Below are positions 1 to 64,000 of a stretch of DNA of 64,000 bases, piece by piece. The first letter of the stretch is position 1. Each line of letters starts with the position of its first letter. A program made the translations under genes and the position numbers. The stretch covers positions 33,441,520 through 33,505,519 of the forward strand of contig NC_057719.1 of assembly GCF_004010195.1 (NCBI RefSeq), read 5' to 3'. This stretch comes from Chiloscyllium plagiosum. Taxonomy: Eukaryota. The notes beneath the pieces are model-generated. The model worked only from the letters and a program-made list of their open reading frames with translations, did no database searches and was not told where the DNA came from.

Positions 1-1384
1 ACCAAATCCTCCCCAAGACAACTAACCCCCACTGCCCCACAAGGTAACTTCCAAACTTTAAATCATCAATTACATCTATTTATTCCTTCACACCAACTCC
101 AATTGATTCCAACCTCAGTCCTCCCCTCCCCCAATCTTGATTTCTTCTACATCCCTGAGCCCCAAATTTGCCTTTAACTTCTCATGCCTCTACCCTCCCA
201 ATCATGGCCATGATTGCTCATGTCACCCCTGCTATGGATTACTGGGAATTATTCCCACAAGTTCCTGGCTACAATCCCCTGGTACTAATACTGCTCCCCC
301 CCCCCACCCCACCCCATCACAAAGACACTCCATTATCACAGTGTCATGCAGGAGTCTGTACTGGTTTATCCAAATAAACTCTGGCTCCTGCAGGGCTTTT
401 TTTGCCCACTAATGGGATTAACCCAATACTTCCACCTGAGGGCCACAATTCTGAGCCATCGCACAACATTTTTTCAATTGCTGGTCTTCAATGTTTCTGT
501 TACCATGCAGAAAAATTCATTTTTCTTTCAGTACAAATTGACTCTTTTTCTATTTTCATATTGATGAAATATTTAAATATTTAAACTTGCCTGTCTCATT
601 ATTTCAATGCCCACAAAGGAACTATACACCACATCATTCTGCGTGATTTTATCATTAGAACTCATTATCCTGTTGTAATCCAATATCTCCAGACTCTCAA
701 AAGTGTGGCTGACCACTCCTCCTTCAGTCTTCCCATTTCCAGCTTCTCAAGACCCAAGAATGGAAGTACCCAGATGCTCTACCCAGCTTTATTATTTTAC
801 GAGCATTTTTTTTTCAATCTTGGTGATTTACTATGCGATGGATCCTATTTTTATATGTGGTATTTCAGTATAAAAATAAACAAACAAACAAACTTGACAC
901 TTTGGTCAAAATATAAATATTTTGAGCTAAATCAATACCTTATACTCATAAAGAGAAACTGCTGTTGCAACAACATTCCAATTCACCACAGGTCTAGTAT
1001 AGATTGACATTTGAAGAATTTCATCAATCTTAACAAATTAATTGAGTCCAAATTTTACCCAGCCACAACTCTCATCCTTACAGCTCAAAACTCCAGCTCC
1101 ACACTCGAGAGGTTGTTCCGCATATTGTTTTAGGGCTAGCATGATTGAGCAAATCTGGTTACTTAACACTTTTGGTCTACTCCACAAAACAATTAAAAAT
1201 ATGTCACTAGGATCTATAATTGTAAATCAAAACAATTATTTCCAAGAGTTTTTCATTCAACTGCAAGGTTTTTATTCTAAAAACACAAGTTCAACCATTA
1301 ACCATAACACTTTTGCCTTTGAGTCACAATGTTTGGATTTCAATCCCACTGCAGGGACTTGGGGAATGGAGGCTTGAGCCCTGG

Positions 1385-2110
1385 GAATTGTCAGTTGTAG
1401 AGAAGACTCAGAATGAGCCTTGGGAGTCTTTGGTAGTTAAATGCAGCTGAAGATGGGGGTGAAAGAAACCCATAGGCAGGTTTTGTTTGGTATAGGTGAG
1501 AAACATTAGAGCCTGAAGAAACCCAGGGGCAATGTCACCATTGGCTTGGTAAAGCCAACTGTTTGTGAAAGAGATGGAATTGTGTCTGAGATTAGACAGT
1601 GGAGCGTGGTCTTGGGAATCCAGAGAAATGCAAACTCGGGAGAAGAGATTGTACACCAAAATGTGAGCAGCTGTTGATGCAGTCTATGATAGTGCGACCT
1701 TTGAGAGAGTTCCAAAGTTTGAGTTTTGAAAGTGAAGAAATGTAATGTCTTGTAAAGAAAATAAAGATTTAATGATATTTAGTGAGACAGTGTCACTACA
1801 ATCTGGGTGTCGAGAGTGCTGAGAAATCTGTGGGGGCTGTTTTGAACACATTTACTACTTAATGTGCTTTGCTAAGTGCTCAGTTGTCTGTTACCCGTAT
1901 TTATCTCATTTTAAATCTCAGCTTTCTTTATTGGTTGATAAGTTGTGTAGACATTGTAGATTGTTTTAGCATTCTAACTGCATAAAGTTTAGTTTATTGG
2001 TTCAAAACCATGGACCTTGTGGCTTTATCCTATGATTAGATAGCTGGGATTTCAAACTTCATCAACTTGAAACATAAAAGGTTACTGGTCCCAGGTGAGA
2101 CCATATAAAT
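1385..2110 (+). mobile_element. Possible old, decayed LTR-like element
   Basis: AG-rich then T-rich composition resembling decayed shark LTRs, ending near ...ctggtccca...catata. No clean termini or TSD seen. Confidence 0.25.
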
Positions 2111-2766
2111 TTGGTGATCTTGGCAGGTTATTGCAATGCTGCCTTTTATTAAAGATGTGAACAGTCATTCAGGTCTTGATGACTCTGCATTCTTACTCTC
2201 TGCCAAGGAGTGGTATGATTTAACTGGTCAAGGGGCAATGTCTTGCAGCCTATGAATGTAAGAGTAGAATTCTCTCTCAGTATTTGCCCATTAGAGTCAT
2301 ACTGAATTATGCAGTCAGTTTTCTGTCGGACAGTACACAGGTCCCAGTCATAGCGTGGACATCTTGGTTGATGCTCCCAGCAGTGAAACAGACAGGAATT
2401 AGATTACCAGTAGTAGAAAATTCAAATTGAAATTCTGGAAAAATATATTGGCAGGCATTTCCATATATTAGCAGAATTCAAATTAACTTTATTCCTTGTG
2501 GCAATGTTTGTGTCACCATTGATGACTAAAAAAGCATTTAAAGCAGAGCTGCAATTTCAACTTTGATTAGTTTGAAACTAACTATTGCTTGGAACTGCTG
2601 TTTATTGCATTAAATACCAAAATATCTGTCATTTTAAACTGAGCTGTCCTCACCCCATTGCCCTGCAGAGCTGACAGCTCCATGTCATGTGCTCCCTGGC
2701 ACCAAGGAGCAGCTACCAGACAGCAGCCTATCATGTGCCTCCGGTAGATGACAACCTCATTAATAT

Positions 2767-2980
2767 AGGAGAAAGTGAGGACTGCAGATGCTGGAGACCC
2801 ATTGTTGAAAAATGTTGTGCTGGAAAAACACAGCAGGTCAGGCAGCATCTGAGGAGCAGGAGAATTGACATTTTGGGCATAAGCCCTTGATTCCTGAAGA
2901 AGGGCTTATGCCCGAAATGTCGATTCTCCTGCTCCTCGGATGCTGCCGGGCCTGCTGTGTTTTTCCAGCACCACATTTTT
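2767..2980. mobile_element. Penelope-derived fold-back (hairpin) element
   Basis: Inverted arms (gaaaaatgttgtgctggaaaaacacagcagg... / ...cctgctgtgtttttccagcaccacatttttc). Flanking direct repeat caacctcattaatat at 2752-2766 and 2981-2995. Same terminus as the GIY-YIG-bearing element at 43389-44299. Confidence 0.8.
2894..2921 (+). ncRNA. Minimal hammerhead ribozyme-like motif (slightly decayed)
   Basis: CTGAAGA-A-GGGC-TTAT-GCCC-GAAA-T-GTC; helix I is weak. Confidence 0.55.
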
Positions 2981-3113
2981 CAACCTCATTAATATTTAGA
3001 GTTTGGAGTCTTAAAATGCTAATTACTATTAAAACAGCAATTTAAACTAGCCATTATAATTGTTGAGCCAAACGCCAGATTCTCCAGTGAAACCTGTCAG
3101 TAAGTCAATGTAG

Positions 3114-3282
3114 TCAAAAGGTGTGGCACTGGAAAAGCAAGCTGGTCAACATTTGATGTACTGTTTATGCTCAAAATGTCAAATCTCCTGCTCCTCAGAT
3201 GCTGCCTGACCAGCTTGCTTTTTCCAGTACCACCGTGTTTTGACTCTGATCTCCAGCATCTGCAGTCCTCACTTTCTCTGAA
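3114..3282. mobile_element. Penelope-derived fold-back element
   Basis: Inverted arms, terminus ctccagcatctgcagtcctcactttctc, TSD taagtcaatgtag at 3101-3113 and 3283-3295. Confidence 0.75.
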
Positions 3283-4652
3283 TAAGTCAATGTAGGATTA
3301 GATGAAATATATTCCAAGACCACGCAGGGAAACCCTGCGACTCCTCTGCCCTTTACTGTCTGAGCGCCTTCCACCCACCCCGCACAACTGACTTCGTTTC
3401 GGATGGAATATTGGATCCTCGGCAATAATTCAAGTGCTCACTCCCACTCACTGAACAGCTATCTACAAGGTCTTTAATGGTCTGGTCTCAAGCAAGTTAG
3501 GGACCAGATACACACTGAAAGATGTACATTCAAATCCTTCAGAACTCCCAACACAATGTCAATGAGTTAGTTACCCAAAAGCTTAAACCTCCAGTGGAAC
3601 CTGGAATCTGTTTAAAAAAAGAAATCAGCAACTGCAAGTGAGAGTTGGAAATTTCAGAGGGTTTGGATTTAACAACCTGGACAGTTACCCAGGAAATGTT
3701 AGAGGACTAAGACCGGCTCTAACTCTAACTCATCCCGAACCCCAATCACTCACACACTGAGTAACCCTCCCCACCCCACCAACATCTGACAACTTCCACA
3801 CTCTGTGGAAGGCACAAGAAACTCCAAGCATTGTTTAATTGGACACCAGTTCTCATCATCAGGGACTATCAACCAACAGGACCATTCTGGAGCAGAAAGA
3901 AAAGATGTGGGTTTCTTTTGATACTTCCAGTTGTGTTGACACTGTTGGAGAGAGTGCTTGGAGAATATTCACAATATCAGTGCCATGAAGCTTCAATCTT
4001 TTGCACTAGTATCAGCAACCAGAGAAATAATGGCCACATGCAATGTTATCAGATGTTGCAAGTAAGAATGTGCATTATGCCCTCAATGGCCTGCCCTCGG
4101 CCTGCACCATTAAACAGGATGCAGGAAAGACTCACTTTGGTTATTCAGCACATCACTAATGTGAAAAGTGCTCTCCTGTTCTTTGCTATCAGGTAAATAC
4201 AGCCCATGAGAGGGAAGATAGCGAAAGCTAATCACAATACCTAACAAGACACAAAATGCTCCTTGCAACACTTACACTGCTGTCCCAATCTGAGCTCCAC
4301 CCTTAGTTCAGAAATCTCTATTGGGGTCCTGTCAGGATTCAAAATAGCAGAAATCTTGAGCTGCAAATCCAGAGGATGTCAGTCAAGAGTACTGGAACTA
4401 CCAGAGCATCAATATGAACAGGCTGCCTCAAGATGTTCTGACAAGGGTTGTGTCATGCAGGGGTGGATGAGAAAGGAACTGTAGTTGCCCAAGAGTATGC
4501 AGCTAGTTACATTTCTCAATACTATAAAATTTAATACACTGCTCCATAGTGCTGTCTTGATCATTTTTTGCCTATTGTTTCTCATGTGACCTTCTTTCTT
4601 ATGATAAATAATAACAGTTATTGATGAACAATGCATGTCAGTGAAACCTGTT

Positions 4653-6499: not shown

Positions 6500-6990
6500 A
6501 TAAAGTGCTGGAGAAACTCAGTAGGTCTGGAAACATCTGTGGAGAGATAAATAGCTATTGTTTCAAGTCCGGCATGACTCTTTTTTAGAGCTCGAAGGAA
6601 TTAGAAAATGCTATTTTTCAAGCTAAAGACAGATGGGGTGGAGGAGCACATGGAACAGATTGTAAGGATGCCCAGAGCAAAAGACAAAAGCAGTGATAAA
6701 AGGAGAGGGAGATGTGTAAAATAGACATCTAAAATAGATCTAAATATTAACTGCGAAAATGAGAAAAATCAGTCTGCTCTACTGAGGGAAAAGTCAACAA
6801 GATGCTTGCCATTTTGATAAAATACATTGCTGTTAACATTCCCATTCTTGGCCTGCTACAGTGTACCAGTGAAGCTCAATATACCTAAAAGATTTAAGCA
6901 TTCTACAGCCTCTGGGACTCAATATTGAATTCCACAACTTCAGAGCATGACCTCTGACCTCCCACCCTCTCCTGGCTCTGTCTTGTGGCT
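6500..6990 (+). mobile_element. Decayed Penelope-like element with GIY-YIG C-terminal remnant
   Basis: About 6835-6945 encodes NIPILGLLQCTSEAQ...LQPLGLNIEFHNF-like pieces; inverted terminus at 6500-6600. Confidence 0.65.
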
Positions 6991-7495: not shown

Positions 7496-7897
7496 ATATA
7501 AGATTTAGGAGCAGGAGTCGGCCATCAGGCCCTTTGAGCCGGCTCTCCCATTCAATAAGATCATGGCTGATCTTTTCATGAACTCAGCTCCACTCACCCA
7601 CATGTTCAGCATAACCTTTAATTCCTTTACTGTTCAAAAATCTATCTTTGCCTTAAAAGTATTCAATGGGAAAGCCTCAGCTGGGCTGGGAATTCCACAG
7701 ATTCACAACTCTTTGGGTGAAGAAGTTCCTCCTCAACTTTGCTCCCCCTTATTTTGAGGTTATGCCCCTAGTTCTAGTTTCACGCGCCTGTGGAAACAAC
7801 CTCCCTGCTTCTATATTATCTCTTTCCTTCATGATTTCATATATTTCTATAAGATCCCCCCTCATTCTTCTAAATTCCAGTGAGGATAGTCCCAGTC
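7496..7897 (-). mobile_element. Old CR1 LINE 3' fragment
   Basis: Typical reverse CR1 tail (ggagcaggagtcggccatcaggccctttgagcc...) and agatcccccctcattcttctaaa. Confidence 0.8.
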
Positions 7898-16285: not shown

Positions 16286-19068
16286 GAATGTAGACCAACT
16301 ATCAGAAACAATAGTAGCAGAAAAATGAGGTTGGGCCTCAGTGAATCAGATTTGGGTAGTGAAACAGGACACCCACTGGTACTCATATGATTATGCTCCC
16401 AGTCAGAATTTGAATTTATAAGAAGCTGTAAACAGATCACAATAACATGGGAAACAATCAAAATTGTTTGCTTGACAGGATTTCATGGCACTGAATACAA
16501 TAAGAGAGATGCTTCAAATGATTACATGAAATTAGCAAAACTGTTGAAAACAATGGGAGATCCACTAGGTGGCCTCTTTCCAAATAGCTACACTATTTAT
16601 ATTCTGGGTAAAGCTCCATCAAGTTACTAACAGGAGTACCATCTTCACTAAAAACAACATATACTGGATTCCAGCATCTGCAGTAATTTGTTCCTTTGTG
16701 ATTTCCAGCATTTGTTGTTTTCAGTACAGATTCCAGCATCTACAGTAACTTGTTCTACCACGTTCACTAAATTGGCCTTGCAATAGATAGAAGGACTTTT
16801 TAGCTGCTCCAATACCAACCATTCTACATCACCATTAAATTATGTTTAATTTTTCATATTACTTTCAGTTCCTCTACCCTTTTAGCCTTGGTACAGGCCA
16901 ATTATGGTTTGAAATGTAGAGAAGGGTGTCAAACTATTGCCACATCATTTAGCATAATAAAGACTAAGATTTTTAAACTCACACCTTAGACTAAGTTTCT
17001 ATTTGAGGGCAAGGTTGTGTGTGGTTAATTATGCAGACAAGCTGATCATGGGTTACATGTACTGCACTGAACATCTGACCCAATTTGTAACAGTTCCCTA
17101 ACCAGTATAGGCTGAAGATCATTTAGATTTGAAATTTTATACCAATGGGTAGATCACAGGATATCACCGTAAGGACTCCTCACAATTTAGCAAAGCTAAA
17201 CTTCAGCATCATATTCTTATTAGCATAATATTACTAATGATCACTGTTCTTAAATATCATTTTTTCTCACTTTAGAGTAATGGTGTAATCATCTTTAACC
17301 TTATCATCATTCACTTCCTTCAGGTTGTACCTAACTTGTTACATCCCAAGGGATGCATGGTGTATGAACCACATTTTGTTTCAGTAGATTTTTAACTAAA
17401 AGATCAGCAATTAGAAAAGCATTAAACAAAAAAAATTGCAAAAGTGCTACTTGTCATGCAGCCGCAAATAATGGTTACCCTTGATTTGCTATGTCATTTT
17501 TAAAAATTAGTCGACAGAACTTTCAAGCTAATTTCAAACAATAAAGATCACAGAACTGAGCTCAGCTCCAAGGAACAGCAATGCAGAATTGAAGCACTTG
17601 AGATTCATTCTGGAATCTGCCAAAAAAGTGTAGCATAGTTTGACCAGTCAGATGAGGCTTTTTAGTTATATTGATGTGATTGGTACTAGATTTCAAAACA
17701 TATAGGAACTGAGGTGGAACTGGTCTGAAAACATGCCAATTTTCTAATGTTTTTCTGAACACTGCCCATATGAGACTAGGTAGGATCAGTGTTCACAGAG
17801 CTACTTGCCTTGATGTGACAGCTGATTAAGTTTGTCAAGTTCCCTAGTCTAACCAATTTACTAATAAATGGCTTTAATTTTTCAGTCAACCTCCAGTTTC
17901 AGACATTTGCAGCAATCAGTTTAGTTTCTTCGGGGCAGGTGACCAGCAATAAAGAAACAGAGAGCAGGAAGCCCTCCTTGCCTCCTTGAAAATAAGTACA
18001 GCCACTTACCATCCTAAAGAGGCACCTTTCACCCATATCATTGGAAAGGAAAATACTTTAAGGTATTGGAAACATTGATGACAAGGCATCTCCATGTTGA
18101 AGCATCATCTCTGTTATTTACCTATCATCACACTCTGCTGCTTCTCTCTGACTGGAATGCCTCTGATTAGCCATCCGGTTTTGAAAAGCCATCAATTGCC
18201 TTTAATTGGACAGGGAACCTGACTCTATGCCAATTATGAAGACCATTCTGAAAATCCCAGTGCGTGACCAAACACAGGTGTGAGTGAGACCCAGAAAGAG
18301 TCTTGTCTTCTGTGTCCTGCCACCATTGGAAAAAGTCTGCCATTTTTGTGACACTAAAATGCTATTATGCCAATATTAAGTGTATCTCCATTAGTGACCA
18401 AGGTAATAGTTATTTTGAATGTTGAATCTGCCTGATTTTCAATGTGGGTTGTAAGGGTAGGTAATTTACAACAAAACAAATGAAAACTGTAATTTGTTAC
18501 ATAGTTTTAATAAGAATTCCATTAAATCCCATTATTAAGTGTTGAAAGGTTTTGGTTAAAAGCTAGTCTCAGTGAAATTAACAGAGTATCAAAGAATAAA
18601 AAAAAACCTGTAAACCACTCAAAAATTTTAAAACTGCATCGACCGACTATGTCTTTTCTGAACAATTTACTATTTACAGATGCCAATATATTGATTCAGT
18701 TTGACAATGTTGATCAAAACTCAATAACAATTCAAAAAATGGACTTCTAAATTCCATTTGTTATCCCATTAAAATGTTTAGTTAAAATTTCCAGATAATA
18801 TTAAAATCAGTTGACTATTATATGTAGAGGATGGCAACTTTATTCCTGGACAATGTTAATATAACTGCCGCAGTCAAATTATTTGGTATTTATGAAGTTG
18901 AACACCATTCCAAACATTGATTTGGGATTAGACTTACTGTACAACCTGCTGTCGTGATTGTAATGAGGTCAGCCAGGTGGACTTCATAGAATGTATGAGC
19001 TCCCTGATTTGGGCTATGAATCTGGTCCAATCAGGGAACCCTGGCAGACAGATATAAACAAGAGAGTC

Positions 19069-19298
19069 ACCCGGGTGTTTTCCTATCTTCCTGGTGGTGG
19101 AATTTGAATAAAGATTCGTGCACTTTGTGTCTTTCACTGTGTCTCACACCTGCACACACACCATGGATGCTGGGGAAAAAATAAGCACTACCACACTTAA
19201 GTGGTAGTGTGGGGGTTAATATAAAAAAAAAGAAAAAAAAATTGGAAACAGGTCATTTCCCTGCCCTCCCAAAAAAGAAAAACAACAAAAAAAAAAAT
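19069..19298 (+). mobile_element. Tx1-like LINE, 3' UTR-only copy 1
   Basis: Same 3' UTR as the ORF-bearing copies (aataaagattcgtgcac..., hairpin, A-rich tail). Confidence 0.8.
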
Positions 19299-19311
19299 AA
19301 ACAAGAGAGTC

Positions 19312-19470
19312 ACCCGGGTGTTTTCCTATCTTCCTGGTGGTGGAATTTGAATAAAGATTCGTGCACTTTGTGTCCTTCACTGTGTCTCACACGTATACAC
19401 ACACACCATGGGTGCTGGGGAAAAAAATAAGCACTACCACACCTAGGCAGTTTATAAAAAGAAAAAAAAG
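19312..19470 (+). mobile_element. Tx1-like LINE, 3' UTR-only copy 2
   Basis: Near-identical to copy 1, with the same 5' junction aaacaagagagtc|acccgggtg. Confidence 0.8.
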
Positions 19471-19610
19471 AAACAGGAGCGTGTTAGAGGTTCTGTTCTC
19501 TTAAAGCTGGCTTTGAGGGAGCTGGATCAGTATCTGTAGGGGGTAAAGGAAAAAAAAGAAAAAAAAAGAAAAAAAAGAAAAAAAAAAGAAAAAATATAAA
19601 CAAGAGAGTC

Positions 19611-20135
19611 CGGTCCAGGCAGCGGGCCGTGGAGGGGGTCGTTAGGGCCATCTGCCTGCCCTTCTTCCGCGGTTACGCTAGAGCCCGGGTGTCCTTGGAG
19701 AAGGAGCATGCGGTGTCCACCAATACCCTGGAGTTGTTCAGGGAGAGGTGGGCGCCGCAGGGAGTGGAGTGCATCATTTCTCCCTCCAACTCTATTTTGA
19801 TTTAGTCCCTACCCTCCTCTTCACTGTTTTGATCACACAGCATTGCCCTTTGATGTGAAGGGCACTGCTTGTCACCGGTCACTCGGGTGTTTCCTATCTT
19901 CCTGGTGGTGGAATTTGAATAAAGATTCGTGCACTTTGTGTCTCTCACGGTGTCTCACACCTACACACACACACACCATGGGTGCTGGGGAAAAAATAAG
20001 CACTACCACAATTAGGCGGTAGTGTGGGGGTTAAAAAAAAGGAAGAAAAGAAAAAAATACAGAAATTCCTCCCAAAAAAAGAAAAAAAAACAAAAGAGTT
20101 TAAGAAAAATAAAGAAAAAAAACAAAAAAAAAGAG
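19611..20135 (+). mobile_element. Tx1-like LINE 5'-truncated copy 3
   Basis: Encodes RSRQRAVEGVVRAICLPFFRGYARARVSLEKEHAVSTNTLELFRERWAPQG, followed by the 3' UTR and an A-rich tail. Confidence 0.8.
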
Positions 20136-20189
20136 AACAGGAGGGTCAGACAACTTGTTCACTCTGAAAAAAAAAATTAACAGGAGAGT

Positions 20190-20725
20190 TTGCACTTCAG
20201 TCCCACGCTCCTTATCTTCAAGCACCCGATACGGAAGAGTGAGGGCAGGTCTGAAGACCTCCTGGTGGGTCTACTCATGGGCCTGGCCAAACTGGCCATA
20301 AACAGATCCAGGCAGCGGGTCGTGGAGGGGGTCATTAGGGCCGACTGCCTGCCCCTCTTCCGCGGTTATGTTAGAGCCCGGGTGTCCTTGGAGAAGGAGC
20401 ACGCGGTCTCCACCCTGGAGTTGTTCAGGGAGATCGTGGGTGCCGCAGGGAGTGGAGTGCATTATTTCCCCCTCCAACTCTATTTTGATTTAATCCCTGC
20501 CCTCCCCTTCACTGTTTGATCACACAGCATTCCCCTTTGATGTCAAGGGCACTGCTTGTCACTGGCCACTCGGGTGTTTCCTTTCTTCCTGGTGGTGGAA
20601 ATTTGAATAAGGATTCATGCACCTTGAGTCTTTCACTGTGTCTTACACCTGCACACACACGACGTGGGTGCTGGGGAAAAAATAAGTACTACTGCAGTTA
20701 GGCAGTTTATAAAAAGAAAAAAAAG
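20190..20725 (+). mobile_element. Tx1-like LINE 5'-truncated copy 4
   Basis: ORF 20190..20519 LLVGLLMGLAKLAINRSRQ...FRGYVRARVSLEKEHA resembles the Tx1/L1-clade ORF2 C-terminus. Confidence 0.8.
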
Positions 20726-21514
20726 AAACAGGAGCGTGTTAGAGGTTCTGTTCTCTTAAAGCTGGCTCTGAGGGAGCTGGATCAGTATCAAGAACTTTTC
20801 ACATGCAAATAAAAAGTGACTTGGTGTTGCGATACCAGCCTTTGTGGAGTTACTTAACCCACAATAACATTTATTTCTTAGGCGAATTACTTGTCCTCAC
20901 TAAATTTGTAAATATTACAACAAGTTGTAAAACCTCCAATGAAACCATGGGCCAATGACATGTTTCCAGTGAGGAATGATACTTGCTGAAAGCTTATTAC
21001 AGGAAATCATGGCTGATTGACCATGGGCAGAAAATCACAGGCTCTGCACCTGCAGATTCCAATGACGCACTGCCTATGAACTCCACGATACATTGGGAGT
21101 GCAGAGCTCAGCCCATCACAAGCACATACAGTACCTGCCTTGCTACTGTGGTCATGATTGCTCCATCCCAATCATTTATCTCAAGGCTGATGGTTTCATG
21201 GTAATTAAAATAATAGTCACATATCTTACTCAGAACAGTTCATTGAAGCTATGAGTATCAGGACAGTGCTGTGTGCCAGGACATTGGCATAGCACAGTCA
21301 AAGAGTGCAGTTGGTCCTGTACTTATTTTCTGGACTGCAATTTTGCCATCTGTTTGCATCCAAGGCAGTGCATACACAGACTCCATGCAAATTTCATTAG
21401 TAAAAAGAAAGACTCATTCCTCTGTACAGATTTTCATGAATGGAAAATGTCCCAGTGTTTCACAGACTACATTTCAAAATGTTTAGTTGACATGTTGTCA
21501 CGTATATAAATTTT

Positions 21515-29593: not shown

Positions 29594-30770
29594 ACATAAA
29601 AGAATACAGCGCAGAACAGGCCCTTCGGCCCTCGATGTTGCACCGACGCTTGAACTATTCTCAGCTCGTCCCCTACACTATCCCATCATCATCCATGAGC
29701 TTATCCAAGGATTGTTTAAATCTCCATAATGTAGCTGAGTTAACTACATTAGCACTCTCTGAGTAAAGAACCTGCCTCTGATATTTGTCTTAAATCTATC
29801 ACCCCTAAATTTGTAGTTATGGCCCCTTGTACAAGCTGACGTCATCATCCTAGGAAAAAGTCTTTCACTGTCTACCCTATCTAATCCTCTGATCATCTTG
29901 TATGTCTCTATCAAATCTCCCCTTAGCCTTCTTCTTTCCAATGAGAACAGACTCAAGTCTCTCAGCCTTTCCTCATAAGACCTTCCCTCCAGACCAGGCA
30001 ACATCCTGGTAAATCTCCTCTGCACCTTTTCCAATGCTTCCACATCCTTCCTGTAATGGGGGCGACCAGAAGTGACACAATATTCCAAGTGTGGCCGCAC
30101 TAACATTTTGTACAGTTGCAGCACAATATTGCGGCTCTGGAACTCAATCTCTCTACAAATGAAACCTAACACATGGTATGCCTTCTTAACAACACTATCA
30201 ACCTGGGCGACAACTTTCAGGGATCTATGTACATGGACTCCAAGATCCCTCTGCACATTCACTCTACCAAGAATCTTTCAATTGACCCAGTACTCTGCCT
30301 TCCTGTTATTCTTCCCAAAGTGTATCAACTCACATTTAGCTGTATTAACACTATTTGCCACCTCTCAGCCCAATCCTGCAGTTTATCCAAGTCCCCCTGC
30401 AATCTTTAACATTCTTACAAGCTGTCCACTACTCCACCAACTTTAGTGTCATCTGCAAATTTACTAATCCATCCAGCTCTGCCTGCTATCTATGCCATCC
30501 ATAAAAATGACAAACAGTAGTGGTCCCAAAACAGATCCTTGTGCCACACCACTAGTAACCAGTCTCCAGGCTGAATATTTTCCATTAACCACCACTCGCT
30601 GCTTTCTTTCAGAAAGCCAGTTTCTAATCAAAACTGCTAAATTACCCTCAATCCCATGCCTCTGCATTTTCTCCAACAGCCGACCATGTGGAACCTTATC
30701 AAAGGCTTTACTGAGGTCCATGTATACCACATCAACTGCCCTACATTCATCTACTTTCTTGGTCACCTCT
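29594..30770 (-). mobile_element. CR1 LINE (RT and C-terminus)
   Basis: [38 protein letters not shown]...VRPHLEYC...RRRLRGDLIETYK. Confidence 0.95.
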
Positions 30771-30891
30771 CTAGTACTTTGAGGGGCCTGCTGTAGGTTG
30801 TTAAAAGTCTCTAAAGTGTATAAGCGTGCAGACAAAACTGCTGCTCCGTAAACCATGATGTTAGTCTTACATTTGAGATCCTGTTTTAAAG

Positions 30892-31345
30892 GGTTCAGAA
30901 AAGATTTACAAGGATTTTGCCAGGGTTGGAGGATTTGAGCATAGGGGAGGCTGACAAGGCTGGGGCTGTTTACCCTGAAGGGTGACCTTATAGAGATTTA
31001 TAAAATCATGAGGGGCATGGATAGGGTAAATAGACATGGTCTTTTCTCTGGGGTGGGGGAGTCCAGAACTAGAGGGCATAGGTTTAAAGTGAGAGGGGAA
31101 AAAATTAAAAGGGACCTAAGCGGCAAAGTTTTCATGCAGAGGGTGGTGCGTGTATGGAATGAGTTGTCAGAGGACGTGGTGGAGACTGGTACAATTACAA
31201 CATTTAAAAGACATCTGGATGGGTTTATGAAGAGGAAGGTTAAACGGGTTTGGGCCAAGTACTGGCAAATGGGACTAGATTAGGTTAGGATATCTGGTCA
31301 GCATGGAAGAGACTGTTTCCGTGTTGTACATCTCTATGACTCTAT
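30892..31345 (+). mobile_element. CR1 LINE 3' end
   Basis: ORF 31008..31283 TRGHRFKV...RVVRVWNEL, plus tail. Confidence 0.9.
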
Positions 31346-62474: not shown

Positions 62475-64000
62475 TAAACTGGAACCAACGGCATAGGAAG
62501 GGAAAAGGTTAAGATTCTGAAGGGAGATTACAGAGAGTTAGGCAGGAATTAAAAAAGGTGATCCTCAAGAATAGTAATATCTGGATTACTCCCAGTGCTA
62601 CGAGCTAGTGAGGGTAGGAATAGGAGGATAGATCAGATGAATACATGGCTAAGGAGCTGGTGTATGGAATAAGGATTCACATTTTTGGATCATTGGAATC
62701 TCTTTTGTGAAGTGACCTGTACAAGAAGAATGGATTGCATCTAAGTTGGAAGTGGACTAATATACTGGCAGGGAAATTTTCCAGCAATAAAGTTTCAACT
62801 TTGATCTCCAGCATCTGCAGACCTCACTTTCTCCTCTTCACATTTTTGGATCATTGGAATCTCTTTTGTGAAATGACCTGTACAAGAAGAATGGATTGCA
62901 TCTAAGTTGGAAGTGGACTAATATACTGGCAGGGAAATTTGCTAGAACTGCTCAGGAGGATTTAAACTAGTAAGGTGGGGGATGGGGGGGAATCCAGGGA
63001 AATTGTGAGGAAAGAGATCAATCTGAGACTGGTACAGTTGAGAACAGAAGCGAGTCAAACAAACAGTCAGGGCAGGCAGGGACAAGGTAGGACGAATAAA
63101 TTAAACTGCATTTATTTCAATGCAAAGGGCCTAACAGGGAAGGCAGATGAACTCAGGGCATGGTTAGGAACATGGGACTAGGATATCATAGCAATTACGG
63201 AAACATGGCTCAGGGATGGGCAGGACTGGCACTGAATGTTCCAGGATACAAATGCTACAGGAAGGATAGGAAGTGAGGCAAGACAGGAGGGGAGTGGCAT
63301 TTTTGATAAGGGATAGTATTACAGCTGTGCTGAGGGAGGATATTCCCAGAAATACATCCAGGGAAGTTATTTGGGTGGAACTGAGAAATAAGAAATGGAT
63401 GATCACCTTATTGGGATTGTATGATAGACCCCCTAATAGTCAGAGGGAAATTGAGAAACAAACTTGTAAGGAGATCTCAGCTATCTGTAAGAATAATAGG
63501 GTGGTTATGGTAGGGGATTTTAACTTTCCAAACATAGATTGGGACTGCCATAGTGTTAAAAGTTTAGATGGAGAGGTATTTGTTAAGTGCATACAAGACA
63601 ATTTTCTGATTCAGTATGTGGATGTAGGTGCAAAACTTGACCTACTCTTGGGAAGTAAGGCAGGGCAGGTGACTGAGGTCTCAGTGGGGGAGCACTTTGG
63701 AGCCAGCGATCATAATTCTATTCGTTTTAAAATAGTGATGGAAAAGGATAGACAAGATCAAAAAGTTGAAGTTCTAAATTGGAGAAAGGCCAATTTTGAC
63801 AGTGTTAGGCAAGAACTTTTGAAAGCTGATTGGAGGCAGATGTTTGCAGGTAAAGGGATGGCTGGAAAATGGGAAGCCTTCAGAAATGAGATAACAAGAA
63901 TCCAGAGAAAGTGTATTCCTATCAGGGTGAAACAAAAGGCCGGTAGGTATAGGGAATGCTGGATGACTAAAGAAATTGAGGGTTTGGTTAAGAAAAAGAA
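62475..64000 (+). mobile_element. CR1 LINE: ORF1 SGNH-esterase C-terminus and ORF2 APE endonuclease (disrupted; runs off the window)
   Basis: IVISGLLPV...MNTWLRSWC..GFTFLDHW...NGLHLS, then LNCIYFNAKGLTGKADELRAWL, DIIAITETWL and VVMVGDFNFPNIDW, with stop codons. Confidence 0.9.
62780..62836 (+). mobile_element. 57-bp Penelope-like terminal fragment flanked by a 104-bp duplication
   Basis: Insert ends gatctccagcatctgcagacctcactttctcc; 62676-62779 is repeated at 62837-62940 with one mismatch. Confidence 0.8.

Follow-up and report, generated by a model that had tools for sequence, protein, structure and literature searches.

The 64,000-nucleotide stretch of Chiloscyllium plagiosum DNA considered here (NC_057719.1, positions 33,441,520 to 33,505,519; the window, whose coordinates are used below) contains at 18950-20857 a solo long terminal repeat (LTR), interrupted directly 3' of its TATAAA (19053) by a stack of copies of a long interspersed nuclear element (LINE). 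Inspection of the sequence and its repeats bore out the view of an earlier, sequence-only reading of the locus (the first-pass annotation) that four 5'-truncated copies in the same orientation lie inside a short LTR. All four are 3' fragments in sense with the LTR. Measured against a natural full-length copy of the LINE, copies 1 to 4 begin at 6899, 6899, 6636 and 6523, in agreement with the annotation's estimate of at least three separate events. The explanation considered probable is that a LINE family of the Tx1 clade has a preference for insertion into LTRs of this one abundant family, in sense, downstream of the TATA box and upstream of the predicted start site, and that the site in the window was struck four times.

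All features of the array lie on the forward strand. The 5' half of the LTR (its U3 region, 18950-19068) carries CCAAT at 19027 and TATAAA at 19053-19058, while the 3' half (R-U5, 20726-20857), also present in contigs, has AATAAA at 20808. The target motif (19054-19068) overlaps the TATA box and is repeated as identical 15-nt copies at 19297 and 19596. Behind it stand LINE copy 1 (19069-19241), a fragment of the 3' untranslated region (UTR) with an A-tail, and a segment (19242-19296) made up of a motif variant (19246), a 12-nt piece of LINE UTR and a second A-tail, likely a product of read-through at the site where the donor of copy 1 sat. Copy 2 (19312-19595) is identical to copy 1 over 78 nt from the motif and divergent afterwards in the alignment. 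A 91-nt block (19444-19534) splits its 3' end, and behind this block stand the 3' tip of copy 2 itself (19535-19549) and its A-tail. The block matches 20699-20789, comprising the end and tail of copy 4, the motif and 64 nt of LTR R, at 90/91 positions; bounded by short homologies, it was likely templated locally, but could instead be an assembly error. Copy 3 (19611-20035) spans the C-terminus of open reading frame 2 (ORF2; stop at 19803-19805) and the 3' UTR. Its composite tail (20036-20176) contains a foreign LTR motif with 23 nt of R from a different LTR variant (20135-20166) and ends in an A-run; it likely stems from 3' read-through out of a donor LTR and follows a pattern like that at loci L157, L158, L169, L122 and L166. 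A local target duplication (20179-20189) precedes copy 4 (20190-20725), the longest copy, which also has an A-tail and by position was inserted earliest; copy 3, with donor relics in its tail, would have followed, then copy 2 and then copy 1. The 5-mer to the right of the LTR (20858-20862) is identical at 3/5 positions to the left flank (18945-18949) and is likely a decayed 5-bp duplication.

The first-pass annotation had placed a shared motif at every junction. The sites that it listed are all present (at 19056, 19299, 19471, 19598, 20135, 20178 and 20726), and a shorter one at 19246 had been missed. Five of them (19056, 19299, 19598, 20178 and 20726) are apparent local target duplications, but 19471, inside the 91-nt block, and 20135, in the tail of copy 3, are not local insertion sites. 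Short-read contigs from four runs and two species bridge the junction between the 3' end of the LTR and the right flank, and one contig of another run bridges that between copy 4 and the 3' half of the LTR. No contig of the four runs and two species spans the whole array, and thus its internal order rests on the present assembly. In the second species the right LTR-flank junction is present and the left flank is about 95% identical (window 18500-18959 and 20769-21300); therefore the solo LTR likely predates the split of the two species.

Upstream walking in the same genome from the 3' fragments led to natural LINE elements, which were used in place of a consensus. Full-length copies are ~7 kb long and consist of a long 5' UTR of about 2.4 kb of GC-rich tandem repeats, a CCHC-like ORF1 and an ORF2 encoding an endonuclease and a reverse transcriptase (RT). 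An 819-aa ORF2 piece showed 51% identity over 97% of its length with Tx1L of Xenopus (UniRef YTX2, P0016), rising to 69% in the RT. Pfam matches were RVT_1 for the RT domain (E=6.7e-33) and Exo_endo_phos for a 71-aa piece of the endonuclease (E=7.5e-4, score below the curated cut-off), with none for ORF1 and the C-terminus of ORF2. Structure matches of ORF2 were to the L1 endonuclease and ORF2p, although the similarity to L1 is far weaker than that to Tx1L. For ORF1, Atlas features gave 0.90-0.94 to CCHC/ZCCHC3-like clusters, and a CCHC knuckle is visible in the translation. An RT tree of 28 rows (midpoint root, no L1 outgroup, 27/120 listed matches included) placed the LINE in a 100/100 clade with Tx1L and turtle, sturgeon-labelled and ray proteins, with 17 more distant Tx1-like rows outside. 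By ORF2 similarity and tree placement the LINE is a member of the Tx1 clade of non-LTR retrotransposons, as the first-pass annotation had proposed. Its copies have poly(A) tails, are often truncated at the 5' end and, where clear, are mostly flanked by target site duplications of 13-17 bp, which regenerate the site.

The interrupted LTR belongs to a family with 2381 first-look candidates genome-wide. Empty copies are about 235 bp long, with exact 5-bp duplications at 5/15 copies examined, and other copies are followed downstream by gag-like and integrase-like internal DNA. One of 10 LTR-element fragments matched the integrase core in Pfam (E=8.6e-5) and 9/10 gave no Pfam match; integrase matches were also obtained in the PDB, where an RT fragment found none. 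The host element appears to be integrase-encoding and is probably of Gypsy type, a label that we take from motif style and the order of the fragments.

The site preference was assessed at 29 LINE loci picked by the 3' end and a further 27 picked by ORF2, with two duplicates and the query removed. U3 lay upstream in sense at 13/29 and 5/27 of them, respectively, or 18/56 (32%) in total, which shows that the flanks of the genomic copies are not random; when R-U5 downstream is added, 23/56 loci are LTR-linked, although part of that R was possibly transduced. No LTR match was found in 94 kb of control DNA (partly minisatellite loci), and the control loci of a repeat derived from tRNA-Gly had an LTR at 0/19. 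Approached from the other side, 29 LTRs picked by U3 alone included eight in which the LINE sits immediately behind the TATA box, always in sense and with eight different truncation points, and two more that hold a second family (described below) at the same place and in the same orientation. The motif followed 43/84 LINE 3' ends, several of which may come from one locus and are not independent, compared with 10/241 unrelated A-tracts. The share of copies flanked by the LTR exceeds the threshold of Kojima, who required more than 20% of flanks of one type for a target-specific family (Kojima, 2015; PMC4494074; statements from this and the other papers cited here refer to the parts of each that were covered). 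It is practically certain that the LINE family prefers, genome-wide and in sense, the LTR site between the TATA box and the predicted start. This is a preference and not a strict specificity, so that the targeting claim of the first-pass annotation holds in the weaker form: 16 insertions with clear duplications lie away from any local LTR. At one further locus (L053) an unrelated repeat occupies the same spot after the TATA box. A target-like word also occurs inside the LINE's own ORF2; it is whole in copy 4 (20298-20306), at the position that corresponds to the beginning of copy 3 (19611), and locus L019 shows an apparent self-insertion at this word.

Stacks similar to that in the window occur on many chromosomes, and their 5' ends match the DNA just downstream of the cut. 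Adjacent LINE pairs had a common 5' start in 11/24 cases, against 1.8% of random pairs. Over 14 shared-start pairs the fronts differed at 40/977 positions and the ends at 79/977. In 11 such pairs the first 60 nt differed by 4.0% from those of the neighbour and by 8.3% from those of other loci; for the last parts the corresponding figures were 7.3% and 7.2%. Simple tandem duplication of shared-start pairs was rejected, given that their fronts are neighbour-like and their ends as different as other loci. Stacked neighbours thus often share a 5' start because the front of the new copy matches its neighbour, which accounts for copies 1 and 2; a new copy would take its front from the adjacent one, copy 1 from copy 2. 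Homology-guided 5' joining of LINE copies is, on these comparisons, highly likely.

Foreign material is likewise common at the other end. LINE tails often contain a foreign motif and R pieces followed by a second A-run; the motif was found inside the tail at 5/16 off-target insertions, and L122 and L166 carry a whole foreign R-U5 with its flank. These relics therefore point to read-through from donor copies that sat in target sites themselves. Where an A-tail runs into the motif, the sequence AATAAA can arise, which may account for short read-through.

The 5' heads of full-length copies bear on how the LINE is transcribed. Thirty loci with the 5' UTR start were sorted by eye. Thirteen begin with the motif and an R-like head, 7 directly behind U3 and 6 behind a LINE tail. 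Another 14 begin with the LINE's own 3' UTR, which passes into an R-derived piece at a junction common to all of them; of the rest, 2 are altered versions of this fusion and 1 is unclassified. A third type of head follows the R-like piece at L200 (oriented 130-195) and L163 (oriented 7500-7570); it is ended by an A-run and possibly represents another subfamily. At 11 loci with both ends (8 of the LINE, 3 of the second family), the spacer at TATA+17..29 was more similar to the 3' LTR half of the same locus than to those of other loci (identity 0.865 vs 0.712, p=1e-4), whereas no such difference was seen over TATA+30..62 (0.808 vs 0.795, p=0.21). Removal of four less clean loci gave, for the remaining 7, values of 0.907 vs 0.741 (p=0.005) and, for the later stretch, 0.797 vs 0.797; a further comparison agreed with this result. 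Most empty LTRs, read by eye, have an initiator-like word with its A at TATA+30, and the usual spacing between TATA box and initiator predicts a start site at this position. The simplest reading suggested by these data is that the RNA begins at TATA+30 and that the junction copies target DNA until the homologous cDNA end is reached. Since full-length copies start with a piece of the LTR, they likely rebuild and use the promoter that they interrupt. These heads lend real but indirect support to the promoter idea, and transcription of the LINE from the host LTR promoter appears somewhat more probable than its opposite.

A scheme consistent with these observations can be proposed. The LINE endonuclease would nick the motif that overlaps the TATA box, and the RNA would be reverse-transcribed there. 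The cDNA end would then anneal to homologous DNA downstream of the cut, namely R if the head is full-length or, within a stack, the LINE copy inserted before it, with the target strand copied up to the point of homology. A full-length insertion would thereby gain CCAAT, TATA, spacer and initiator at native spacing in front of it and would likely be transcribed from the LTR start. Its transcripts would often take in 10-60 nt of the target downstream of the donor, so that tails come to contain foreign motifs. In its fullest form, to which we give about an even chance, the proposal is that a promoter-less LINE lineage and its non-autonomous partners live on the LTR core promoter. They would cut between TATA box and initiator and carry the first ~50 transcribed LTR bases as a head. 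By annealing to the target, this head would both close the 5' junction and restore a functional promoter with each full-length jump, and the host LTR would be severed from its own start site.

Several points weigh against these readings. The samples consist of the best 20-30 of 325-3416 candidates, and because only top-scoring candidates were taken, query-like copies are favoured. U3 was not found within 1.5 kb at 38/56 LINE loci; program-based detection of target duplications was limited where arrays reach the edge of the retrieved DNA. The duplications of the 16 off-target insertions, which were chosen by eye and lack a local U3, are unlike the motif or resemble it only loosely, and 11/16 of their tails have no motif. 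One of the 11 neighbour pairs (L104) shows the opposite trend. In the crossover comparison the 3' partners were chosen by eye, and the absence of a local signal after TATA+30 may partly reflect low power. Finally, most of the long copies examined have broken ORFs.

It is also conceivable, though unlikely, that the site preference is real and the LINE has an internal promoter, either in its 5' UTR repeats or in the captured R piece alone, with the head aiding 5' joining or being a relic. The long, repeat-rich 5' UTR could act as such a promoter, and the crossover at the initiator would also fit an internal promoter that starts at base 1. Roughly half of the heads have 3' UTR and not R at their beginning, which could reflect a promoter in the 3' UTR; in Drosophila, HeT-A has its promoter there. 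However, all 13 R-type heads come after motif and spacer, and head and site are shared with a non-coding family whose body is different. Moreover, the heads fused to 3' UTR, found at 14 loci, have one junction in common, and therefore transcription from upstream of that junction would be needed. Somewhat less likely again is that the bound or open TATA region, through chromatin or a tether, directs insertion with a loose A-rich cut preference, in place of sequence recognition by the endonuclease. Such targeting could explain why off-target duplications vary widely from the motif and why an unrelated repeat sits at the same spot in L053. It fits poorly with the retention of one strand and one position even within stacks at a distance from the TATA box that retain just the duplicated motif, and with the conclusion that target choice is mainly set by the endonuclease (Kojima, 2015; PMC4494074).

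The common start of copies 1 and 2, the near-identity of the 91-nt block to its source, the lack of a spanning short-read contig and a resemblance to local duplication at L037 would all suit a stack that arose by local tandem duplication, as an assembly artefact, or as a passenger amplified within a replicating LTR element. Nevertheless, the window has three truncation points and eight other LTRs have a different one each, shared-start pairs diverge in their 3' halves as much as unrelated copies do, and comparable stacks are found on many chromosomes, which makes such an origin very improbable. Hitch-hiking of the LINE inside the LTR element in particular was rejected on the varied truncation points.

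The second family is poly(A)-tailed and about 1.75 kb long, with 2334 candidates. It was LTR-linked at 14/19 loci and has the same R-derived head and target site as the LINE, while its body showed no similarity to LINE ORF1 or ORF2; it is likely a non-autonomous partner. Members were seen at L045:845-1120 (-), L197-L216 and L044, several with 3' flanks from a related LTR subfamily. A short interspersed nuclear element (SINE) headed by tRNA-Gly was considered as another partner after L056, and was rejected on finding a LINE tail or LTR at 0/19 related loci. This tRNA-Gly(TCC)-derived repeat (L056:2344-2548 (-) and L178-L196; 492 candidates) is joined to the 3' UTR of the LINE in one instance, at the target site; its copies at other places lack a LINE tail and often have a further SINE behind them.

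Targeting of LTRs is a known habit of Tx1 elements, as two crocodilian families of the Tx1-Mar group, Tx1-8_Crp and Tx1-4_AMi, were already described as preferring specific LTR retrotransposons (Kojima, 2015; PMC4494074). The present LINE resembles them in this preference. The head of Tx1-4_AMi is derived from U1, whereas that of the present LINE comes from LTR R, and for both families the main-text parts covered, which allow comparison by description only, make no mention of LTR position, a link to the TATA box or an LTR-derived head. In the same paper, the partner SINE SINEU-3 shows tandem insertions around a duplicated target, and SINEU is said to be possibly transcribed from its target (PMC4494074). 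Tx1L of X. laevis shares the RT clade and the use of another transposon as target, but this target is the piggyBac-type DNA transposon Tx1D and not an LTR promoter (PMC4494074). R2 in 28S rDNA is co-transcribed with its target, and target sequence on the cDNA has been postulated to anneal and give uniform 5' junctions (Eickbush, 2013; PMC3774820). Transcription from the target and annealing at the 5' junction are thus proposed in both cases, although R2 has a restriction-like endonuclease, an rRNA target and a ribozyme. In R2 the homologous DNA lies upstream of the site, whereas for the present LINE it lies downstream of the cut, which gives an extended duplication. Keno and Utopia insert in U2 snRNA genes, occasionally in tandem (PMC4640811), and like the present LINE use one site of a multicopy RNA polymerase II (Pol II) unit; their insertions, however, fall in the RNA-coding part of a host gene, whereas those of the present LINE fall in a selfish LTR, ahead of the predicted start. 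A literature search, with Repbase and most subscription journals outside its scope, returned no report of this LINE, of a Tx1 element at an LTR TATA box, or of a placement between TATA box and initiator with an LTR-derived head.

The completion of LINE 5' ends and the transcription of target-specific LINEs are open points that this family addresses. It has left natural junctions by the thousand, at which LTR variants peculiar to each locus indicate the extent of target copying, so that the genome sequence can reveal homology-guided 5' joining. Should the LTR promoter indeed be used, the system would represent parasitism of one transposon on another at a Pol II core promoter, in which about one in three sampled LTRs is interrupted. 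In addition, common truncation points in stacks need not mean tandem duplication, and junction motifs can arrive with the RNA.

Some minor features were also noted. At L110, around 2062, the LINE 3' UTR is joined to endonuclease-like sequence of an apparently different Tx1-type element. A widespread GC-rich minisatellite (L002:1-580 and L061-L091; 621 matches) has long open frames and adjoins one LINE copy. Elsewhere in the window, whose repeat content as a whole resembles that of a cartilaginous fish, open frames of 177-243 aa at 29747-30997 (-) and 63270-63999 (+) resemble fragments of other LINEs.

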